Assembly (NCBI GenBank): GCA_965242485.1
Contig: CBDESM010000002.1
Span: 25,266-89,265 of the forward strand
Source of the DNA: Dehalococcoidia bacterium
GTDB taxonomy: Bacteria; Chloroflexota; Dehalococcoidia; Bin125
Length of the DNA: 64,000 bases
Direction of reading: 5' to 3'
Shown one piece after another: positions 1 through 61,943 of this stretch; within the stretch, counting starts at the first letter, position 1; the number at the start of each line of letters is the position of its first letter. The notes beneath the pieces were generated by a model. It ran no database searches. It saw nothing but the letters and a program-made list of their open reading frames with translations, and was not told the origin of the DNA. A program made the position numbers and the translations under genes.

Positions 1-114
1 CTCCACATCTACCGGCCGGGCATGGAGGTCGAGAAACGAAATCGGCCGCTCAGCGTTGAAGCCGGCCCCGAGATGCCCGGCTTCGTCGTAGACATGGTCC
101 CGATCTGGGAATAA
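1..114 (+). CDS. Uma2 family endonuclease, C-terminal fragment (gene starts upstream of window)
   Basis: Frame 1 translates to ...EAGPEMPGFVVDMVPIWE*. This matches the conserved C-terminus of the other Uma2 copies in the window (GPEMPGxxxDFxRIW). Confidence 0.6.
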   Translation, partial: LHIYRPGMEVEKRNRPLSVEAGPEMPGFVVDMVPIWE

Positions 115-134: not shown

Positions 135-797
135 ATGACCACGCTCGCAAGCGAATCTCCGCCCTATGCCGGACTTGAAATCGGCCGCCATCCGCTGCCG
201 CCCGGCTTCGAAGCCACCGACGAGTTCATGCGCGAGGTGCAGGAACTCAATCCGGGCAAGCTGATCGAGTGCTGGAAGAACAGAGAGCTGGTGGTCACCG
301 TGGGAGCAGGCGGCAACGCATCGGCGCGCGGGGGCTCGCTGTACATCCAAGTCGACGAATGGACCGTCAAGCTGGTTCCCGGCCTCGCTGAAGAGAGCTC
401 GCAGGGGTACGACCTGCCCGACGGCACGCAGTACAAGCCCGATGTCAGCTGGATGGACGAGGCGACGGTGCGGCTGCTGAACGAGATGTACGAGACCGAT
501 CTCGACTGGCCCGAGTACCTGCCGGTCGTGCCCCGATTCGTCGTCGAGATCGCCTCGCCGTCAGACAAGCGCCGCGACAATCTTGCCCAGCAGCGGGCGA
601 AGTGCGGGCATTGGGTCGAACAGGGCGTCGGCGTCGCTTGGCTGATCGACCCGTTCGATGATCTCCTGCTCGTCTATCGCGACGGGATCGAAACCGAGAT
701 CCACCAACGTCCGGCGCGGATCGAAGTGGGGCCGGAGATGCCCGGGCTGGAGATCGACTTCGGCAGGATCTGGACTGCGCGCGGATCGCGGGGTTAG
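135..797 (+). CDS. Uma2 family endonuclease (DUF820, PD-(D/E)XK-like)
   Basis: 220 aa. Motifs PRFVVEIASPS and GVxxAWLIDP, C-terminal GPEMPGLEIDFGRIW, typical of Uma2/PF05685. Confidence 0.8.
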   Translation: MTTLASESPPYAGLEIGRHPLPPGFEATDEFMREVQELNPGKLIECWKNRELVVTVGAGGNASARGGSLYIQVDEWTVKLVPGLAEESSQGYDLPDGTQYKPDVSWMDEATVRLLNEMYETDLDWPEYLPVVPRFVVEIASPSDKRRDNLAQQRAKCGHWVEQGVGVAWLIDPFDDLLLVYRDGIETEIHQRPARIEVGPEMPGLEIDFGRIWTARGSRG

Positions 798-6451: not shown

Positions 6452-7858
6452 TTGGGCCCGGGCGATCCGAACGTTGAAAACCGCACCCTCTTCGAGCACG
6501 ACAACCTCCCCGTCATGCGCGGGATCAACTCCGAAACCATCGACCTGATCGCCACCGACCCGCCCTTCAACAAGGGCCGCGACTTCCACGCCACCCCCGA
6601 CTCGCTCGCAAAAGGCGCGAGCTTCCAAGACCGATGGCGCTGGGAGGAGGACGTGCAGGCTGAGTGGGTGGACGCGATCAAAGATTCGGAGCCCGGCGCA
6701 TGGGCCGTGATCGACTGGACACGGATGACCTACGGCGACGACATGGGGGCGTTCTTGTGCTTCGTCGGGGTGCGGCTATTGGAGATGCGGCGGGTGTTGA
6801 AGCCGACGGGGAGCATCTACCTCCACTGCGATGACACAGCGAGTGCATACCTGAAGACGCTGATGGACGCGATCTTCGGGCGGCAGAATTTCCGCAATGC
6901 GATCAAGTGGTGCTACACGGGACCAAGCGTAGCCAAGCGTTGGTTCCCTCGAAAGAGTGATTCGATCCTCTTCTATGCGAAGAGCGATGCGAGTACGTTC
7001 AATTCGCAACGGAAACCGCACAAGTCAGGTATCCACAATAACGGAACGGTCTTCGGAAAGATCGACGGTGATGCCGAGCAAATGCGGCAACGGGAAGTAG
7101 ATGGGAAGCTTGTCGAGGACTGGTGGGATGATTTTGGTGCCGGAGCACATATCGCTAAGGGCGAGCGCACTGGCTACCCGACACAGAAACCGCTCGCGCT
7201 TTATGATCGGATCATCCGGGCCTCGTCAAATGAGGGTGATTGGGTGCTGGATCCGTTCGCGGGGTGCGCGACTACGCCATTGGCGGCGGAGATGGCGGGG
7301 CGGCGCTGGATCGGGATCGACCTTTGGGACGGGGCGATGCAGACCACGATTGAACGTTTCCAGAAGACGGTGAAGCTGGCGGCTGCGGATACTGCGGTCA
7401 ATACGATGGCGATCATCGGCCAGCTGCACCACCGTACTGATGTGCCAGAACGTACTGATGGCGGGGATGCGGCTGCGCCATATCTGGCGACGCCGACGAA
7501 GGGGATGCGGCGCAGGCCGTTGATGGGCGTGAGCGAGATGAAAGAGCTGCTGGTCGATAAATTTTGGTTCCATTGCTGGGGCTGTAATTTCGTCGCGCCC
7601 GACGCGCGCTATCTCGAACTCGACCACATCCGCCCGCGCAATTCCGGCGGCTCCGACGATATCGACAACCGCGCCCTGCTCTGCGGCCCCTGCAATAAGA
7701 TCAAGCGCGACCACGCGACGCTGGTCAGCCTCCGAAAGGCCAACGAGAAATCAGGCCACCTCAGCGGCACGCACCCGATCAACCTCAAAGAAGCCGGCCG
7801 CTGGACCCGCCAACAGTACGAAGCAGCCCTCGCCAAGCGCCTCGGCGCAGAAGCCTAG
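6452..7858 (+). CDS. Beta-class N6A/N4C DNA methyltransferase fused to a C-terminal HNH endonuclease domain
   Basis: Motif IV DPPF (IATDPPFNKG) precedes motif I (LDPFAGCATT), i.e. beta class, PF01555-like. The C-terminus HCWGCNF...LELDHIRPRNSGGSDDIDNRALLCGPCNKIK is a clear HNH motif. GC (~52-60%) is lower than the neighbours. The annotated start is a TTG with no SD directly after the repeat, so the true start and frame linkage depend on repeat number. Confidence 0.8.
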   Translation: MGPGDPNVENRTLFEHDNLPVMRGINSETIDLIATDPPFNKGRDFHATPDSLAKGASFQDRWRWEEDVQAEWVDAIKDSEPGAWAVIDWTRMTYGDDMGAFLCFVGVRLLEMRRVLKPTGSIYLHCDDTASAYLKTLMDAIFGRQNFRNAIKWCYTGPSVAKRWFPRKSDSILFYAKSDASTFNSQRKPHKSGIHNNGTVFGKIDGDAEQMRQREVDGKLVEDWWDDFGAGAHIAKGERTGYPTQKPLALYDRIIRASSNEGDWVLDPFAGCATTPLAAEMAGRRWIGIDLWDGAMQTTIERFQKTVKLAAADTAVNTMAIIGQLHHRTDVPERTDGGDAAAPYLATPTKGMRRRPLMGVSEMKELLVDKFWFHCWGCNFVAPDARYLELDHIRPRNSGGSDDIDNRALLCGPCNKIKRDHATLVSLRKANEKSGHLSGTHPINLKEAGRWTRQQYEAALAKRLGAEA

Positions 7859-7874
7859 CGGCGAGCCGATCGGA

Positions 7875-7902
7875 ACAGCCGACGCCGCAGGGCGTCGGCT
7901 GT
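7875..7902 (+). terminator. GC-rich hairpin (12-bp perfect stem, GCAG loop), putative terminator after the MTase-HNH gene
   Basis: acagccgacgcc-gcag-ggcgtcggctgt, followed by a moderately T-containing stretch and then an AAGGAG RBS for the next gene. Confidence 0.5.
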
Positions 7903-7930
7903 TCGCTATCATCAGATCAAGGAGCAGCCA

Positions 7931-8560
7931 ATGGTCAGCGCGCCAGCCATCGAGACCATCGAGGATGCGGCCGAGGCCGCCCGCGAGGGCCCGCCCGTCT
8001 GCTTCCACCCGAACGCGCCCGTCTCCGACGAGCAGCTCACGCAATGGGCCGGCCAGTTCGAGCTCTGGTTCGAGGACGGCGAAGAAGGAGAGATCATCAT
8101 CACTGGAGGAGCAGGCGGCGACTCGCCGAACATCACCTTGGAAGCGTCGGGGCAAGCCGCAAACTGGTCAGTGAACCTCCTCATCGGCATGTGCCGCGAC
8201 GCGCAGGGCGGCTACCACCCGCCGCTCGGACGCCGCTGGATCCCCGACCTCAGCTGGCTCAGCGACGAGACCCTGGCCAAACTCACGGAATCGCAGCGGC
8301 GCGGCGTCTGCTGGCCTGTCGCGCCGGATTTCGTGCTCGAAGTCGTCTCGCCCAGCCAACAACTCTCCAAGCAGCAGGAAAAGATGCGCGGCTGGATCGC
8401 CGCCGAAGTCCGGCTCGGGATGCTGATCTCCCCAGATGACGAACTGGTCGAGCTCTACCGCGCCGACGGCTCCGTCGAAACCTTCCACCGCCCCGACGCC
8501 GTCTCCTGCGACCCCGTCATGCCCGGCTTCACCATGACTTTCGAGCGCATCTGGCGCTGA
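7931..8560 (+). CDS. Uma2 family endonuclease, tandem copy 1
   Basis: 209 aa; PDFVLEVVSPS, GMLISPDDELVELYR, PGFTMTFERIWR. RBS AAGGAG upstream. Confidence 0.8.
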   Translation: MVSAPAIETIEDAAEAAREGPPVCFHPNAPVSDEQLTQWAGQFELWFEDGEEGEIIITGGAGGDSPNITLEASGQAANWSVNLLIGMCRDAQGGYHPPLGRRWIPDLSWLSDETLAKLTESQRRGVCWPVAPDFVLEVVSPSQQLSKQQEKMRGWIAAEVRLGMLISPDDELVELYRADGSVETFHRPDAVSCDPVMPGFTMTFERIWR

Positions 8561-8594
8561 GCCGTACCCGGTACCCTTCTTGCGAGGAGCAGCC

Positions 8595-9224
8595 ATGGTC
8601 AGCGCGCCAGCCATCGAGACCATCGAAGACGCAGCCGAGGCCGCCCGCAAAGGCCCGCCCGTCTGTTTCCGCCCGAACACGCCCGTCTCCGACGAGCAGC
8701 TCGCGCAATGGGCCGGCCAGTTCGAGCTCTGGTTCGAGGACGGCGAAAAAGGGGAGATCATCATCACTGGACCACCAGGCGGACTCGCATCCGATCACAC
8801 CAGCGAAATCGTCGCGGACATGATCTTCTGGTCCCGCCGCCGCGGAGGCGGCCGGGCGCGGGAGTCGCAACGCGGCTTCGACCCACCGTTCGGACGCCGC
8901 TGGGTTCCCGACGCCAGCTGGGTCAGCGAAGAAACGCTCGCCAAACTCACCGAGGCGCAAAAGCGCCGACCCTTCTGGCCCGTCGCGCCCGATTTCGTGC
9001 TCGAAGTCGTCTCGCCCAGCCAGCAGCTCTCCAAGCAGCAGGAAAAGATGCGCGGCTGGATCGCCGCCGAAGTCCGGCTCGGGATGCTGATCTCGCCAGA
9101 CGACGAACTGGTCGAGCTCTACCGCGCCGACGGCTCCGTCGAAACCTTCCATCGCCCCGACGCCGTCTCCTGCGACCCCGTCATGCCCGGCTTCACCATG
9201 ACTTTCGAGCGCATCTGGCGCTGA
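8595..9224 (+). CDS. Uma2 family endonuclease, tandem copy 2
   Basis: Start at MVSAPAIETIEDAAEAARKG (Met 8595). First ~55 and last ~100 residues are near-identical to copy 1; the central ~50 residues are divergent. Confidence 0.8.
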   Translation: MVSAPAIETIEDAAEAARKGPPVCFRPNTPVSDEQLAQWAGQFELWFEDGEKGEIIITGPPGGLASDHTSEIVADMIFWSRRRGGGRARESQRGFDPPFGRRWVPDASWVSEETLAKLTEAQKRRPFWPVAPDFVLEVVSPSQQLSKQQEKMRGWIAAEVRLGMLISPDDELVELYRADGSVETFHRPDAVSCDPVMPGFTMTFERIWR

Positions 9225-9260
9225 GCCGCTACCCGGTACCCTGCTTGCGAGGAGCAGCCA

Positions 9261-9887
9261 ATGGTCAGTGCGCCAGCCATCGAGACCATCGAGGATGCGG
9301 CCGAGGCCGCCCGCGAGGGCCCGCCCGTCTGCTTCCGCATCACTGCGCCCGTCTCCGACGAACAGCTCGCGCAATGGGCCGGCCAGTTCGAGCTCTGGTT
9401 CGAGGACGGCGAAAAAGGAGAGATCATCATCACTGGACCACCAGGCGGTTTGGCATCCGACCACACCAGCGAAATCATCGTCGACATGGGCCTCTGGGCC
9501 CGCATCACCGGCGGCCGCGCGCGCGACTCGCAGCGCGGATTCCACCCGCCGCTCGGACGCCGCTGGGTTCCCGACGCCAGCTGGGTCAGCGAAGAAACGC
9601 TCGCCAAACTCACCGAGGCGCAGAAACGCCGCCCCTTCTGGCCCGTCGCGCCCGATTTCGTGCTCGAAGTCGTCTCGCCCAGCCAGCAACTCTCCAAGCA
9701 GCAGGAAAAGATGCGCGGCTGGATCGCCGCCGAAGTCCGGCTCGGGATGCTGATCTCCCCAGACGACGAACTGGTCGAGCTCTACCGCGCCGACGGCTCC
9801 GTCGAAACCTTCCACCGCCCCGACGCCGTCTCCTGCGACCCCGTCATGCCCGGCTTCACCATGACTTTCGAGCGCATCTGGCGCTGA
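9261..9887 (+). CDS. Uma2 family endonuclease, tandem copy 3
   Basis: 208 aa, near-identical to copy 2 except in the central block. Confidence 0.8.
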   Translation: MVSAPAIETIEDAAEAAREGPPVCFRITAPVSDEQLAQWAGQFELWFEDGEKGEIIITGPPGGLASDHTSEIIVDMGLWARITGGRARDSQRGFHPPLGRRWVPDASWVSEETLAKLTEAQKRRPFWPVAPDFVLEVVSPSQQLSKQQEKMRGWIAAEVRLGMLISPDDELVELYRADGSVETFHRPDAVSCDPVMPGFTMTFERIWR

Positions 9888-13674: not shown

Positions 13675-14280
13675 GTGTCACTGCTACCCCACTCGATCTC
13701 CAGTGACGTCTCCGAGCGGATCGGGCGCGCGGCCGCGCGCACCGGTTTGACGCCCAACGCCTTCACGGTCCTCGGCCTGACGGGCGCGGGCGCCGCCGCG
13801 GCGCTGATCTCCTTCGGTTGGCTCTGGCAGGGCGGGGTCGTCTTCCTCGCCGCCTCGCTCTTCGATCTGCTCGACGGCGCGGTCGCCCGGGCGACCGAGC
13901 GCGCGAGCGATTGGGGCGCCGTCTTCGACGCCGTCTCCGACCGCCTCGCGGACTTCGCGATCCTGTTCGCGATCATCATCTGGGCGAGCGGCGCCGACGT
14001 CGGCCGCCGCGAGCTGGTGATCGTCGCAACCGTGGCGATGTTCGGCGGGATGCTGGTGAGTTATACGCGCTCGAAGGCGGGCGAGTTCGGCGTGCGCATC
14101 CGCAGCGGCCTCGGCACGCGGGCGGAGCGCACCGTGATCCTCGGCGCCGCGCTCGTCTTCGGCGGCGCAGTTCACATCGACGCGCTGCGCATCTGCCTCT
14201 ACCTGCTCGCCGTGCTCGCCTGCCTCACCGCCCTGCAGCGCTGGTACCTCACCTGGTCCGCAATGCGCGACTCCGCCTAG
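13675..14280 (+). CDS. CDP-alcohol phosphatidyltransferase (likely phosphatidylinositol-phosphate synthase / PgsA-like)
   Basis: Motif D-x2-DG-x2-AR-x8-G-x3-D-x3-D is present (DLLDGAVARATERASDWGAVFDAVSDRLAD), with multiple TM segments. The ino1 and pimA-like genes nearby suggest a PI-type substrate. Confidence 0.8.
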   Translation: MSLLPHSISSDVSERIGRAAARTGLTPNAFTVLGLTGAGAAAALISFGWLWQGGVVFLAASLFDLLDGAVARATERASDWGAVFDAVSDRLADFAILFAIIIWASGADVGRRELVIVATVAMFGGMLVSYTRSKAGEFGVRIRSGLGTRAERTVILGAALVFGGAVHIDALRICLYLLAVLACLTALQRWYLTWSAMRDSA

Positions 14281-14885
14281 CGGTCGAATAAAGCCCAGAT
14301 TCGCTTGAAGTCGACGACGAAACCGGGCATCTCGGGGCCGACTTCCAGCGTCAGCGGGCTCACGTGCACTTCCGGTTCGCCATCGTCGCAGAAGACGTAG
14401 ACCGTCTTGGACAAAGGGTCGATCATCCAGACGACTTTCGCGCCGTCGCGCATCCACTCGCGCGCGCTCTCCAGCTGCGAGGCGACCGACTGGCCGATGC
14501 GTCGAATCTCGACCACGACAGACGGGATTATGCGCGGATAGCCGGGTTCGCCGGCTTGGCGCAGCACCTTTTCGCCCTGCTCGGCGGTGAACCAGCACGC
14601 ATTGGGAGCACGCGTCCGCAGATCATGCGGCCGGCGAACCCCGGCGCCGGCGCCACTGACCAAGCCGCCGGCCTCGTCCGCCCAATTCATGAACTGCTGG
14701 ATCAGCATCACCCCGATGTACGGCGCGAAGCCGGGGCTGCTTCCAGAGAGGATGAGTTCCCCTCGCGCCCCGCGCTCGATGTCCAAGTGCGGGTTCAGCT
14801 CGGCGCAGCGCTCGAGCAGATCATCCGTCAGCGGCGTTTCGGCCGGCAGCTCGACGACGTAGACCGCGTCCTCGGCCGCATCCAC
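14277..14885 (-). CDS. Uma2 family endonuclease
   Basis: PSVVVEIRRIGQS, VVWMIDP, GPEMPGFVVDFKRIW. Confidence 0.75.
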   Translation of the reverse strand: MDAAEDAVYVVELPAETPLTDDLLERCAELNPHLDIERGARGELILSGSSPGFAPYIGVMLIQQFMNWADEAGGLVSGAGAGVRRPHDLRTRAPNACWFTAEQGEKVLRQAGEPGYPRIIPSVVVEIRRIGQSVASQLESAREWMRDGAKVVWMIDPLSKTVYVFCDDGEPEVHVSPLTLEVGPEMPGFVVDFKRIWALFDR

Positions 14886-58235: not shown

Positions 58236-58795
58236 GCGCCGAAGATTTCGGCCATCACTGCTTCGGCCTGCACCACATCGCCGCCCCAACGCGCCATCCA
58301 TTGCGGTGAATCGCCCACGCGCACATCGAGCCACAGGGGCTCTACCGCTCCCGCGCCGCCATGTTGGCCGGATACGCCATCAGGTCTCGCCATTAGAATT
58401 TGCTTCGGGATGATCCAGATCGCCACGTCCTCAAGGCGAGGAGCGAGTCCGATGCAGATCATGATCTCGTAGTTTTGATCACGAATTTGTTGGAACTTGA
58501 ATCGGCCATTCGCCCATAGGGTCGAGAGTTTGATTTCGACTCGACGGCCCTCAATCAGCCGGTCAGCTTCACTGTCACCGGCAGGCTCGACTGTGTACCC
58601 GAGCGCTTCGCACCAGTCCGCGATGAGATTTTCGCCAGTCGCACCTCTTGCCCGTGACGGCAATTGTCTGAGCCATCCAAACGGACTCTGATCCCATTCG
58701 CGATCTTCCTGGGAACGCGAGGCCTCAAGATTGGACGAAATCTCAGCGAGCAGATTGAGCAATTCGTCGCGCCGTTGATCTGAGTCCGGCATCAT
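58226..58795 (-). CDS. Putative Type II restriction endonuclease (PD-(D/E)XK-like), partner of the adjacent MTase
   Basis: 189 aa. Start overlaps the MTase stop by 4 nt. Candidate catalytic motif D-x13-E-x-K (AGDSEADRLIEGRRVEIK). GC ~57%, well below the genome background. Confidence 0.55.
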   Translation of the reverse strand: MMPDSDQRRDELLNLLAEISSNLEASRSQEDREWDQSPFGWLRQLPSRARGATGENLIADWCEALGYTVEPAGDSEADRLIEGRRVEIKLSTLWANGRFKFQQIRDQNYEIMICIGLAPRLEDVAIWIIPKQILMARPDGVSGQHGGAGAVEPLWLDVRVGDSPQWMARWGGDVVQAEAVMAEIFGAQS

Positions 58796-59673
58796 GCCTC
58801 CAATACGAGTTGTCGGGTGCTCTCTGTGAGGTTATCAGGCGCGAAGCCTTGAAATGTTGGATTAGCGAACGCCAGTCGTGTCGCCATCGTGCATGCTGCG
58901 TCGGGGTTCACGTCGATCATCGTGAAGCAGCGCCGGAGTCGTGCCGCTGCTTCTCCAGTCGTGCCAGAACCAGCGAAGAAGTCAAGGATGTGATCGCCGG
59001 GATCGGAATGTACGGCGATCAGTCGCTTGAGAATCGACAGAGGCTTCTGCGTCGGATATCCAGTTCGCTCCTTTCCGTTCGTCGGCACGATCGTGTTCCA
59101 CCAGACGTCAATGGGCGGACGGGCGGACTCGGCTGCGTCGCCCGGCATCGGGTAGTCCGACGAGTTGGCGACATCGGCATTGAAGACGTATTGATTTGGA
59201 TCTCTTGCATACCAAAAGATCGAATCGTGCTTCGCAGCCCATTTCCGCTTCGAACGGCCGCCGAAGTCGTATGCCCAGATGATCTCATTCATGAACGATT
59301 CGATTCCGAAGATCGAGTCCAACAACAGTCGGCAATAGTGAGATTCCCGCTGATCGATGTGGAAGAAGAGGGAGCCATCAGCTGTCAGTATCCGGCGAGC
59401 TTCGGCTAGCAACGGTGCTAGAAATTCGATGTATCCATCAAACGAATCGTCATATCCCTTTGAATCGATGGGGATTGAACGATAGGCGCGCCCGCCGAAG
59501 CCGACTCTGTCCCCGTTCACCGCATCGGCCACGACTTTGATGCGGTTCAGCGTCTGGGTCTTGCCGGTGTTGAACGGCGGATCGATGTAGATCAGGCGGG
59601 CGGATTCATCGGGGAGCAACGGCAAGACGCTCGCAGAGTCGCCGCAGATGATCGAGTTGCCCGTTGGCTGCAC
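58792..59673 (-). CDS. Beta-class N6A/N4C DNA methyltransferase (Type II)
   Basis: DPPF (LIYIDPPFNTG) precedes FAGSGTT; PF01555-like. GGAG-N8-GTG start at 59673. The upstream 730 codons of the track ORF are an Arg-rich shadow and are rejected. Confidence 0.85.
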   Translation of the reverse strand: MQPTGNSIICGDSASVLPLLPDESARLIYIDPPFNTGKTQTLNRIKVVADAVNGDRVGFGGRAYRSIPIDSKGYDDSFDGYIEFLAPLLAEARRILTADGSLFFHIDQRESHYCRLLLDSIFGIESFMNEIIWAYDFGGRSKRKWAAKHDSIFWYARDPNQYVFNADVANSSDYPMPGDAAESARPPIDVWWNTIVPTNGKERTGYPTQKPLSILKRLIAVHSDPGDHILDFFAGSGTTGEAAARLRRCFTMIDVNPDAACTMATRLAFANPTFQGFAPDNLTESTRQLVLEA

Positions 59674-59678
59674 GGCAT

Positions 59679-60767
59679 CTACTCCAGCGTTGCTTGGAGC
59701 TGGTTGTGGATCAGCGGCCAGTCGATTTCGTGGCCCAGGCCTGGTTTGGTGGGGGCGTGGACTGTGCCGTTGGTCATGTCGATCTCTTCGGCTAGGCCGT
59801 AGACGAGGCCGCCGGTGCTGGGGAAGTACTCGTAGAACTCGCTGTTGGGGGTGGCCATCATGACGTGGAGGTTGGCTACGTTGTTGAGGCTGTTGCCGCC
59901 GTGGTGGATCTCGCATTTCATTTGGAAGCCTTCGGCGAGGTGGCAGAGCTTGACGAGGGGGGTGATGCCGCCAGTGACGGCTACGTCGCCGCGGAGGATG
60001 TCGGTGGCGTATCTGGTGATCCACTGGGTCATGCCGTAGTAGCGGCCGGGGGCGTATTCGGTGGACATGATCGGGATGTCCATCTTGGCGCAGAGCTTGA
60101 CGTAGCTGTAGAGGTCTTCTTCGGCCAGCGGGTCTTCGTACCAGTAGTAGTCGAGCTCCTCGATGGCGCGGCCGACGCGGACGGCGTCCTCGTATTGGTA
60201 GGCCCACATCGAATCGAGCATCAGCTTCATCTCGGGGCCGACGGCTTCGCGCACGGCGCGGCAGATTTCGATGTCCTCCTTGGGGTCGGCGTGCGGGTGG
60301 ATCTTGTGCGCCGTCCAGCCTTCGGATTGGAATTTCAGTGCCTCTTCGGCGTATTCCTGCGGGGTGTCCCACCAGGCGGTGCTGGAGTAGACGGGCATCT
60401 CCTCGCGGACGGTGCCGAGCAGGCGGTGGATCGGCTGGTTGGCGATTTTGCCGTTGATGTCCCAGAGGCAGATGTCGATCGCGCCGATCACGTGGGTCGA
60501 GACGGCGCGGTTCTGCTTCCAGAGGTCCTTCCAGATCGCGCCGATGTCCTGCGGGTTCTTGCCCAGCACGCGCGGCTTGACCACGTCGATCAGCGACTGC
60601 GCGTGGTGTTCGGGCCGGCTCAGGAAGGCGTGGCCGGAGACGCCCTCGTCGGTTTCGACGGCGACGACGCCTAGTGAGCGCTTGCCGCCGAAGCGCATGT
60701 GGCTGCCGACCTTCCATTCGGGCGTCGGCCAGTCGAAGACGAGGACTTTGACGTTGGTGATCTGCAT
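59679..60767 (-). CDS. Enolase-superfamily enzyme (mandelate racemase / muconate lactonizing enzyme family)
   Basis: MR/MLE N- and C-domains, with metal ligands in the KxK...D...E...D pattern. GC ~60%. Confidence 0.75.
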   Translation of the reverse strand: MQITNVKVLVFDWPTPEWKVGSHMRFGGKRSLGVVAVETDEGVSGHAFLSRPEHHAQSLIDVVKPRVLGKNPQDIGAIWKDLWKQNRAVSTHVIGAIDICLWDINGKIANQPIHRLLGTVREEMPVYSSTAWWDTPQEYAEEALKFQSEGWTAHKIHPHADPKEDIEICRAVREAVGPEMKLMLDSMWAYQYEDAVRVGRAIEELDYYWYEDPLAEEDLYSYVKLCAKMDIPIMSTEYAPGRYYGMTQWITRYATDILRGDVAVTGGITPLVKLCHLAEGFQMKCEIHHGGNSLNNVANLHVMMATPNSEFYEYFPSTGGLVYGLAEEIDMTNGTVHAPTKPGLGHEIDWPLIHNQLQATLE

Positions 60768-60776
60768 CGCGCGCTC

Positions 60777-61943
60777 CTATGCCAGGTTGTTGACGTTGGT
60801 GACGAGGTTGTAGATGAACCAGCCGTCGTCGACGCCGAAGGTTTCGGGCTTGGCGCGGAGGTTGTCGCGCATGATGCCGAGGCCGTCGGTGTACGGCTCG
60901 AAGGAGACGATCTTGTCGTGGCGGACGCGGAAGCGCTCGCGTTCGCCGTGGAAGTAGAGGTGCTTGGTGGTGACGCCGAGCATGCCGGTGTCGGCGAGGA
61001 TCGTGACCTCGCGGGAGTGGCTGCGGCCGCGGAACTGGCTGGGGCGGAGGTAGACGCCGCTGGCGACGCGGACGCTGACGCCCATCGAGCTGCCGCGGAA
61101 CTCGCGCTCGGTCTTGGTTTTGTAGTACTTGGCGTCTTGGAAGACCCAGATCATGTCTTCCGATTTCATCAGGTTGAACGGCATCCGGCCGCCGAAATCC
61201 ATGCGGTCGGGCAGGTGGCCGTCCATGACGTCGCGCAGGACGCCGGCTTGGACGAGCTTGGTGAAGCGCCCGTTGCCGTCGAGCTGGGATTGGGAGAGAT
61301 CGAAGTGCTGCATGAAGCGGCCGAGCGAGGCTTCTTCGTCCTGCGAGAGGAGGCCGTCCTCCAGGGCTTCGTCGACGGCGCGGCCCCAAGCGACGGGGGA
61401 GAAGCGGCGGGCGGCGGACTGGGCGAAGCCGAGCTGGTCGAGTTCTTGGTCCATCTCGGGCAGGGAGATGTTGCCGTGCGCCGCGTCGACGATGATTCCC
61501 TCGGCTTGGCGGCGGATGCGTTCCGCCTCGCGCTGCTCGCGGACCGCGATCGCCTGCTCGAAGTCGCGCCAGGAGTTGCGGTGGTCGAGATCGGCCCGGC
61601 TCAGTTCGTAGTGCTCTTGGAAGCGGCGCAGCGCGGCTTCTTCTTCTTGGCTGAGCAGATCGTCGGACAGCGATTCGCGGAGCACGTCGCGCCAAGCTTC
61701 GGCTTGCGCGGAGCGGGCGCGTTCCGGTGCCATCTCCAGCGCTTCGAGCACTTCGTCGGCTTGGGAAGGGTCCATGTTGCCGCGGGCGGCGGGCTTGAGG
61801 ACGCGCAGCGCGGAGGCACGGACTTCGGCGATGCGCCGTTCTTCGGCCTGCTCGGCCGCCTTGCACGCGAGGTGCTTGGGCCCGAACGCCTTCAGCGTCT
61901 CGCGGAAGCCGACATCCTCGCCGCAGATCGAACAGGCGGGCAT
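60777..61943 (-). CDS. Hypothetical protein with N-terminal zinc-ribbon (CxxC...C) and uncharacterised C-terminal domain
   Basis: MPACSICGEDVGF...LACK N-terminus, central coiled-coil-like acidic region and a conserved-looking C-terminal ~150 aa. No family recognised. Confidence 0.45.
   Translation of the reverse strand: MPACSICGEDVGFRETLKAFGPKHLACKAAEQAEERRIAEVRASALRVLKPAARGNMDPSQADEVLEALEMAPERARSAQAEAWRDVLRESLSDDLLSQEEEAALRRFQEHYELSRADLDHRNSWRDFEQAIAVREQREAERIRRQAEGIIVDAAHGNISLPEMDQELDQLGFAQSAARRFSPVAWGRAVDEALEDGLLSQDEEASLGRFMQHFDLSQSQLDGNGRFTKLVQAGVLRDVMDGHLPDRMDFGGRMPFNLMKSEDMIWVFQDAKYYKTKTEREFRGSSMGVSVRVASGVYLRPSQFRGRSHSREVTILADTGMLGVTTKHLYFHGERERFRVRHDKIVSFEPYTDGLGIMRDNLRAKPETFGVDDGWFIYNLVTNVNNLA

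Follow-up and report, generated by a model that had tools for sequence, protein, structure and literature searches.

The window analysed here is a stretch of 64,000 nucleotides (nt) from a contig of a Dehalococcoidia bacterium, and at positions 7,931 to 9,887 it carries three adjacent genes of the Uma2 family (COG4636/DUF820). These genes form a tandem array of PD-EXX-K nuclease-family proteins that evolves as a mosaic, with a central module that most likely sets specificity; this explanation as a whole has a probability of roughly 0.6. In it, (i) recurrent gene conversion and unequal recombination homogenise codons 1-59, and especially codons 129-209, within each genome, (ii) codons 60-96, followed by a tail that reaches about codon 128, persist as a few anciently diverged discrete types under purifying selection, (iii) conversion tracts can also move the whole module between copies, so that copy number, order and module content differ between close relatives, (iv) the module would most likely determine what each paralogue binds or cuts, and an array would amount to two to four nucleases with a common scaffold and different specificity.

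Divergence within the triplet

In a Pfam search all three copies match the Uma2 profile PF05685 (E 7e-21 to 1.5e-25), with scores of 74.9-90.1 bits against a gathering cut-off of 27; three other full copies in the window score 61-70. All frames of the array are intact and in one orientation, each copy has its own ribosome-binding site, and the copies are probably co-transcribed. The repeat period is 664-666 nt, and a repeat finder recovers direct repeat families of 258 nt and 300 nt at a spacing of 663-666 nt; Tandem Repeats Finder missed the array because its period exceeds 500 nt. The repeat unit extends from about 14 nt upstream of each ATG to 8 nt past each stop and thus overruns both gene ends, and the conserved spacers of 34-36 nt, which carry an AGGAG ribosome-binding site, therefore count as part of it. 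The start of copy 2 is set at the ATG at 8595, not at the TTG at 8580, because the former aligns with the other two starts and is preceded by AGGAG. The proteins of all three copies are on record in NCBI/ENA, from a contig of 128,057 nt.

Nucleotide differences are spread very unevenly along the genes. Codons 1-59 (177 nt) differ at 11 positions between copies 1 and 2, at 10 between copies 1 and 3 and at 15 between copies 2 and 3, and codons 129-209 (243 nt) at only 7, 4 and 3 positions for the same three pairs. The sequence-only reading had described three adjacent Uma2 genes with near-identical ends, and this is accurate: nucleotide identity is 92-94% at the 5' end and 97-99% at the 3' end. 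Codons 60-96 (about 111 nt) differ at 58 positions between copies 1 and 2 and at 54 between copies 1 and 3 (about 48% identity), and at 21 between copies 2 and 3 (81%). The following codons 97-128 (96 nt) are intermediate, with 22, 19 and 5 differences. The variable core of some 50 amino acids (aa) that had been proposed thus holds as a divergent centre, but strong divergence covers only about 37 aa (residues 60-96) and is followed by a moderate tail to about residue 128. Likewise, the three genes had been said to differ in a central cassette; this is right for copy 1, whose core is here called type A, but copies 2 and 3 carry two subtypes, B and B', of one cassette.

Between copies 1 and 2, third codon positions differ at 27 of 68 codons within alignment codons 62-129 and at 13 of 141 elsewhere (Fisher P = 4.5e-7), so the uneven divergence is not merely an effect of protein constraint. 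The site patterns among the three copies fall in runs (runs test P = 0.0006), which is a patchwork. In the core, copy 1 is separated from copies 2 and 3 by a synonymous divergence (dS) of 0.7-0.8 and a nonsynonymous divergence (dN) of about 1.

Core types, concerted ends and conversion between copies

Core types were surveyed in 54 distinct relatives, and every traceable one comes from a Dehalococcoidia assembly. A protein search returns about 36 clusters at 51-91% identity, which form a compact subfamily, then a gap, then ordinary Uma2 proteins at 40% or less; the nearest named genome is the Dehalococcoidia metagenome-assembled chromosome OZ242037.1. A scan of JGI metagenomes yielded only distant Uma2 proteins (27-37% identity), a scan of viral contigs only weak partial matches (31-33% identity), and a search for contigs encoding copy 2 or P0004 found none.

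The cores of the 54 proteins form six clusters at 60% identity. Their pairwise identity is bimodal, at either 20-40% or 60-100%; that of the C-terminal part is always 60-100%. Within types the core is under purifying selection: the ratio of nonsynonymous to synonymous polymorphism (pN/pS) is 0-0.11 in most type B pairs, 0.34 in one type B pair in which the value rests on a single substitution each, and 0.04-0.38 in type A, and dN/dS is 0.09 in type D, between the related sequences L003 and L027. The term hypervariable, applied to the core from the letters alone, therefore does not fit a region that consists of few old discrete types, conserved across genomes at a pN/pS of 0-0.38.

The individual cores of the window have close counterparts in other assemblies. 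Copy 1 has its nearest cores in the type A genes of L029, L031 and L032, and its codons 97-128, 19-22 of 96 nt away from copies 2 and 3, are only 2-3 nt away from the type A genes in L031 and L032. The core of copy 2 is 2-4 nt from those of L031_3 and L032_2 and 58 nt from that of copy 1; the core of copy 3 is 1 nt from that of L031_2 and 21 nt from that of copy 2.

The ends of the copies show the reverse relationship. In the 3' part, dS is 0.05-0.13 among the window copies against 0.44-0.55 to genes of the same type in L029 and L030. In the core it is 0.19 between copy 1 and the type A gene of L029 against 0.81 between copy 1 and copy 2. In nearest-neighbour tables, ends fall in with others of their own genome and cores with others of their own type, and the two L032 copies are 2 nt apart in the 3' part and 6-11 nt from the others in the set of window, L031 and L032. 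In the converted segments, paralogues of the same genome are closer to one another than orthologues of different genomes, and the tracts are visible.

One such tract can be delimited by comparing L001 and L003, which are near-identical at the array locus and hold the core series E' (frameshifted), C, E, C and E', D, E, C, respectively. Along about 60 consecutive informative sites (alignment nt 195-326), L001 copy 1 agrees with L001 copy 3 and differs from L003 copy 2, the gene that holds the corresponding place; outside this interval the informative sites mostly show the opposite pattern. The core of L001 copy 1 differs from that of its own copy 3 at 0 of 105 nt, with a dS of 0.16-0.24 in the flanks. 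Judged from this alignment, the tract, of roughly 130-180 nt, is a gene conversion that swapped a whole core module for one of another type. Gene conversion had been suggested at the outset, and ends that cluster by genome, cores that cluster by type and the tract itself bear the suggestion out; its main effect is the homogenisation of the ends. A small variable patch near the N-terminus (aa 24-30) reads RITA on type B' in the window and on type A in L031; within the window group it occurs (there at aa 26-29) on different core types in different genomes, so recombination also takes place in the conserved segment that separates patch and core. A tie of this patch to core type is rejected, as the patch reassorts independently.

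Arrays of the subfamily recur at two loci. Locus 1, between a gene for a methyltransferase-HNH fusion and a Peptidase_MA_2 gene, holds A,B,B' in the window, A,B',B in L031 (a long-read contig of 37.6 kb whose flanks are about 96% identical to those of the window), A,B in L032 and B',B in L030. Locus 2, upstream of a 2-hydroxyacid dehydrogenase gene, holds four copies in L001 (one frameshifted), four in L003, three in L028 and two in L027. As assembled, array size (1-4 copies), order and content vary between close relatives. In L001 the frameshift splits the fourth copy (7301-7932) into called genes of 135 and 58 aa, whereas L003 has this copy whole; the break reflects either a pseudogene or an indel error of long-read sequencing. 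In L029 (1-1974) genes of both loci meet: the methyltransferase-HNH gene and a type A Uma2 gene are linked to the 2-hydroxyacid dehydrogenase gene known from locus 2 (93% identical to the L001 protein), and this junction is either a real rearrangement via the Uma2 repeats or a chimeric short-read contig. The mosaic as a general trait of tandem Uma2 pairs is unsupported: in the one cyanobacterial pair compared, from a Pseudanabaena plasmid, the genes are only 23% identical throughout, with no mosaic.

The predicted active site and competing explanations

In a predicted model with a predicted local distance difference test score (pLDDT) of 92.7, the core module consists of a loop (residues 60-64), a helix (65-84), a turn and a strand (87-90). 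Asp106, Glu137 and Lys151 do not vary among the window copies; in the model Asp106 sits on strand 107-110, Glu137 on strand 134-138 and Lys151 on helix 145-157. This is the PD-EXX-K layout, in which strand 2 bears the Asp, strand 3 the Glu and the following helix the displaced Lys. The 3' part (codons 129-209) holds the rest of the catalytic domain, with Glu137, Lys151 and the C-terminal sheet. The overall fold is that of TT1808, with an N-terminal subdomain and a restriction-endonuclease-like core, and in a profile alignment to TT1808 the three residues fall on its PD, FEV and AKM motifs, positions taken here to correspond to D, E and K130 in the work of Feder and Bujnicki (2005, PMC551604). 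In the same alignment residue 65, the first of the helix, meets the active-site Ser of the S-PD-EXR-K motif of TT1808; this position is a conserved His in most of the family and is counted as part of the active site (PMC551604).

Sequence entropy among the 54 proteins is highest at residues 64-88, with G62, G63, Q75, W79 and G86 conserved, and has a helical periodicity of 104 degrees (P = 0.02). One face of the helix is therefore conserved and the other variable, and the claim that variation is focused on one surface stands, the surface being the exposed face of a single helix. Because the helix starts beside the active site, its variable face is exposed and the residues around Asp106 co-vary with it, the module most likely sets substrate or partner specificity. 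The wider proposal, that the helix is an exchangeable specificity determinant and the array a small multi-specificity nuclease battery, defensive or selfish, whose set of types conversion across the conserved scaffold reshuffles between strains, can be put forward only tentatively.

Several points weigh against a mosaic with a specificity module. No functional study or nuclease activity for any Uma2 protein was found in the literature on Uma2/DUF820. Between core types dN and dS are both near saturation, so positive selection is neither demonstrable nor excludable there. The sole reconstructed core conversion, from copy 3 into copy 1 of L001, cut diversity. Some differences in array order come from metagenome contigs built from short reads or from 3x long reads, in which the repeat may have led to wrong joins. 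A rival reading is that of a neutral by-product, in which old tandem paralogues are homogenised by conversion in their similar parts, the middle is too divergent to pair and the cores have no distinct function. Homology-dependent conversion alone would suffice for a mosaic, no positive selection is detected within types, one conversion erased a core type with the reading frame undisturbed, and one copy in L001 is frameshifted. However, each core type is conserved across genomes with a pN/pS down to 0-0.1, and such low values within types argue that each type is functional; the variation is limited to one face of the helix, with the packing face conserved, and arrays in different lineages repeatedly hold different types, not duplicates. 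The neutral account is possible, though doubtful. In another rival reading, the variable face would be a subunit interface, its types preventing mixed dimers of co-expressed paralogues and leaving cleavage unaltered. PD-(D/E)XK nucleases are usually dimeric, the solved Uma2 entries 1wdj, 3ot2 and 9y1l have 2-3 chains (chain counts are not equated here with biological oligomers), and the paralogues, probably transcribed together, have near-identical surfaces elsewhere; but the module includes the residues that flank the catalytic Asp106, which fits a substrate cleft better than a dimer contact, and an interface is unlikely.

Programmed diversification and an assembly artefact are both unlikely explanations of the array. 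The former would require a retroelement, an invertase shufflon or silent cassettes that feed an expression site, and the conserved flanks around a variable block give the array a superficial look of this. However, no reverse transcriptase or recombinase occurs among about 45 open reading frames of the window scanned against Pfam (not every one in it), the repeat finder gives no inverted repeats within the array, where the copies are all direct repeats, and no silent donor cassettes for the array were found. Differences between copies, with the pair of copies 2 and 3 included, are found at all four bases and not at adenines only, the copies are complete, co-oriented and equipped with their own ribosome-binding sites, and cores are near-identical (1-2 nt) between genomes about 4% diverged. 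A diversity-generating retroelement is rejected for the lack of a reverse transcriptase in the scanned frames and of adenine-only differences, and an invertase shufflon or phase-variable specificity locus for the lack of inverted repeats in the array and of a recombinase among the neighbours. Programmed diversification as a whole is extremely improbable, and the cassette-like diversification first proposed does not survive as an active generator of diversity. An artefact, with the repeat collapsed or expanded or strains joined in a chimera, has some grounds in the 243-nt 3' blocks, whose 97-99% identity can confuse short-read assemblers, in the order B,B' in the window against B',B in L031, and in the joining of two different loci in L029. 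It is nevertheless very unlikely: the same three proteins occur on the independent 37.6-kb long-read contig, the same core types in at least five assemblies and arrays of 3-4 copies on two long-read contigs of about 2.85 Mb (one labelled chromosome), and all reading frames are intact. The copy order A,B,B' in the window is provisional and needs long-read confirmation.

Neighbouring genes, known systems and meaning

The gene upstream of the array encodes a fusion protein, in which an N6/N4 DNA methyltransferase is followed by an HNH nuclease at the C-terminal end (Table 1). Its guanine-plus-cytosine content is 58-62%, against about 70% around it, and the fusion family is very widespread, with at least 8000 matches at E <= 1e-20, the best 120 of which are 50-94% identical. 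The gene adjoins the array in the window and in L029, L030, L031 and L032, and it has the same syntenic place in related genomes. In L033-L035 (the L003 genome and two other contigs) it abuts Peptidase_MA_2 directly, with no Uma2 gene and no hairpin. The arrays in L001, L003, L027 and L028 have no adjacent methyltransferase, and the methyltransferase near those arrays is unrelated. A restriction-modification unit of methyltransferase-HNH protein and array is rejected, as the linkage is not conserved: L033-L035 keep the gene without Uma2. A perfect hairpin between this gene and copy 1 is kept ahead of the first Uma2 gene in L029-L032, whereas neither L033-L035 nor the locus 2 arrays have it. 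It may serve as a terminator or have a regulatory role; Rfam and tRNA scans find no known RNA family or tRNA nearby. Because L033-L035 have nothing between the methyltransferase-HNH and Peptidase_MA_2 genes, we read array and hairpin as an insertion in the lineage of the window, and the methyltransferase as no dedicated partner.

Table 1. Positions of the array, its parts and related features in the window
Feature	Position	Strand	Basis or remark
C-terminal Uma2 fragment, cut by window edge	1-114	+	Sequence comparison
Divergent Uma2 paralogue	135-797	+	Pfam E 3.9e-18; 30% identity to copy 1
N6/N4 DNA methyltransferase (N6_N4_Mtase) fused to C-terminal HNH nuclease	6452-7858	+	Pfam; neighbour, outside the repeat unit
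Hairpin, perfect stem of 14 base pairs, 4-nt loop: GAACAGCCGACGCC GCAG GGCGTCGGCTGTTC	7874-7905	+	Upstream of copy 1; no T run after it
Uma2 copy 1, core type A, 209 aa	7931-8560	+	Open reading frame; Pfam PF05685 E 7e-21; AlphaFold2 pLDDT 80
Core module of copy 1, codons 60-96 (loop, helix 65-83, turn, strand 88-90)	8108-8218	+	About 48% nt identity to copies 2 and 3
Moderately divergent tail of copy 1, codons 97-128, flanking catalytic Asp106	8219-8314	+	Nucleotide comparison
Spacer 1, AGGAG ribosome-binding site, part of the repeat unit	8561-8594	+	Kept in L031 and L032
Uma2 copy 2, core type B, 209 aa	8595-9224	+	Open reading frame; Pfam PF05685
Core module of copy 2, codons 60-96, type B	8772-8882	+	Nucleotide comparison
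Spacer 2 with ribosome-binding site	9225-9260	+	Repeat and spacer comparison
Uma2 copy 3, core subtype B', 208 aa	9261-9887	+	Pfam PF05685 E 1.5e-25
Core module of copy 3, codons 60-95, one codon shorter	9438-9545	+	Alignment
Solitary divergent Uma2 paralogue	14277-14885	-	Pfam E 1.3e-16; 28% identity to copy 1
Solitary divergent Uma2 paralogue	29195-29848	-	Pfam E 2.4e-19; 35% identity to copy 1

A six-frame scan with hidden Markov models finds six full Uma2 genes in the window and no more; the fragment at the window edge is the seventh, and the earlier count of seven copies in 64 kb is correct in this sense. The four copies outside the triplet are 28-38% identical to it, and at so low a protein identity they are ruled out as donors of the type A core. 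The fragment (1-114) and the gene next to it (135-797) are a second tandem Uma2 pair, 20 nt apart, of a separate divergent Uma2 lineage. At 13675-14885 synteny with L033 (9333-11656) breaks: the window has there a gene for a CDP-alcohol phosphatidyltransferase and one of the solitary Uma2 genes, both of which L033 lacks, and in L033 the luciferase-like and Thioredoxin_9 genes run the other way round than in the window. Elsewhere, positions 58792-61866 (minus strand) encode a protein of 1024 aa whose C-terminal domain is an N6_N4 DNA methyltransferase and whose large N-terminal part has no assignment, and 32383-37655 (minus strand) is a four-gene run for an 816-aa NYN-domain protein and for DUF429, CxxCxxCC and weak radical-SAM-like proteins.

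In type I hsdS genes, conserved flanks let recombination reassort variable blocks among a limited set of discrete alternatives. The outcome of target-recognition-domain exchange in hsdS is similar to that in the array, where a variable block with discrete alternatives also lies between recombining conserved flanks. In contrast with hsdS, the array has no invertase or inverted repeats and all its copies are complete and in the same orientation; its variable block lies inside the catalytic domain and not in a separate recognition domain, and its role in specificity is putative. Concerted tandem gene families share with the array the likeness within a genome in converted segments and tracts of a few hundred bases. 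Unlike in ordinary concerted evolution, homogenisation in the array is partial and halts around one structural element that stays multi-allelic. The array is ordinary, though clean, partial concerted evolution, and no new mechanism, system or active generator of diversity.

Among defence-related profiles, that of the PADLOC candidate gene PDC-S03 matches the C-terminal half weakly and in part, with E of 3.6e-7 to 1.4e-5; this suggests that PDC-S03 is a distant Uma2-like protein; it is itself only a candidate defence gene. Type IIG/IIL enzymes (DrdV, 7lo5; BpuSI, 3s1s) have the nuclease domain within a large fusion and take their specificity from another domain, whereas Uma2 proteins stand alone at about 210 aa.

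Feder and Bujnicki defined the family together with its PD-EXX-K site and described how it proliferates in genomes; they already reported tandem duplications, including a run of four genes in Crocosphaera, and found no link of the family to methyltransferases, and the present results accord with theirs on all these points; in Gloeobacter, Uma2/COG4636 makes up more than 2% of genes (PMC551604). The background first given for the triplet, of PD-(D/E)XK nucleases without a known function that are expanded in some genomes, agrees with this account. With TT1808 (PDB 1wdj) the array shares family sequence, fold, PD-EXX-K layout and multiplication within a genome. The mosaic, with homogenised ends and discrete exchangeable helix modules, is undescribed in PMC551604, and no description of the pattern in Uma2 arrays was met with in the literature found.

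The arrays are a natural experiment, in which proteins are near-identical save for one exposed helix face that comes in a handful of conserved versions. The helix module marks the region that most probably determines what Uma2 acts on, and the array copies are ready matched pairs for comparing the proteins biochemically and for exchanging helices. If the module does set specificity, it would offer the first experimental handle on what Uma2/COG4636, a very large nuclease family that has stayed uncharacterised since 2005, recognises.

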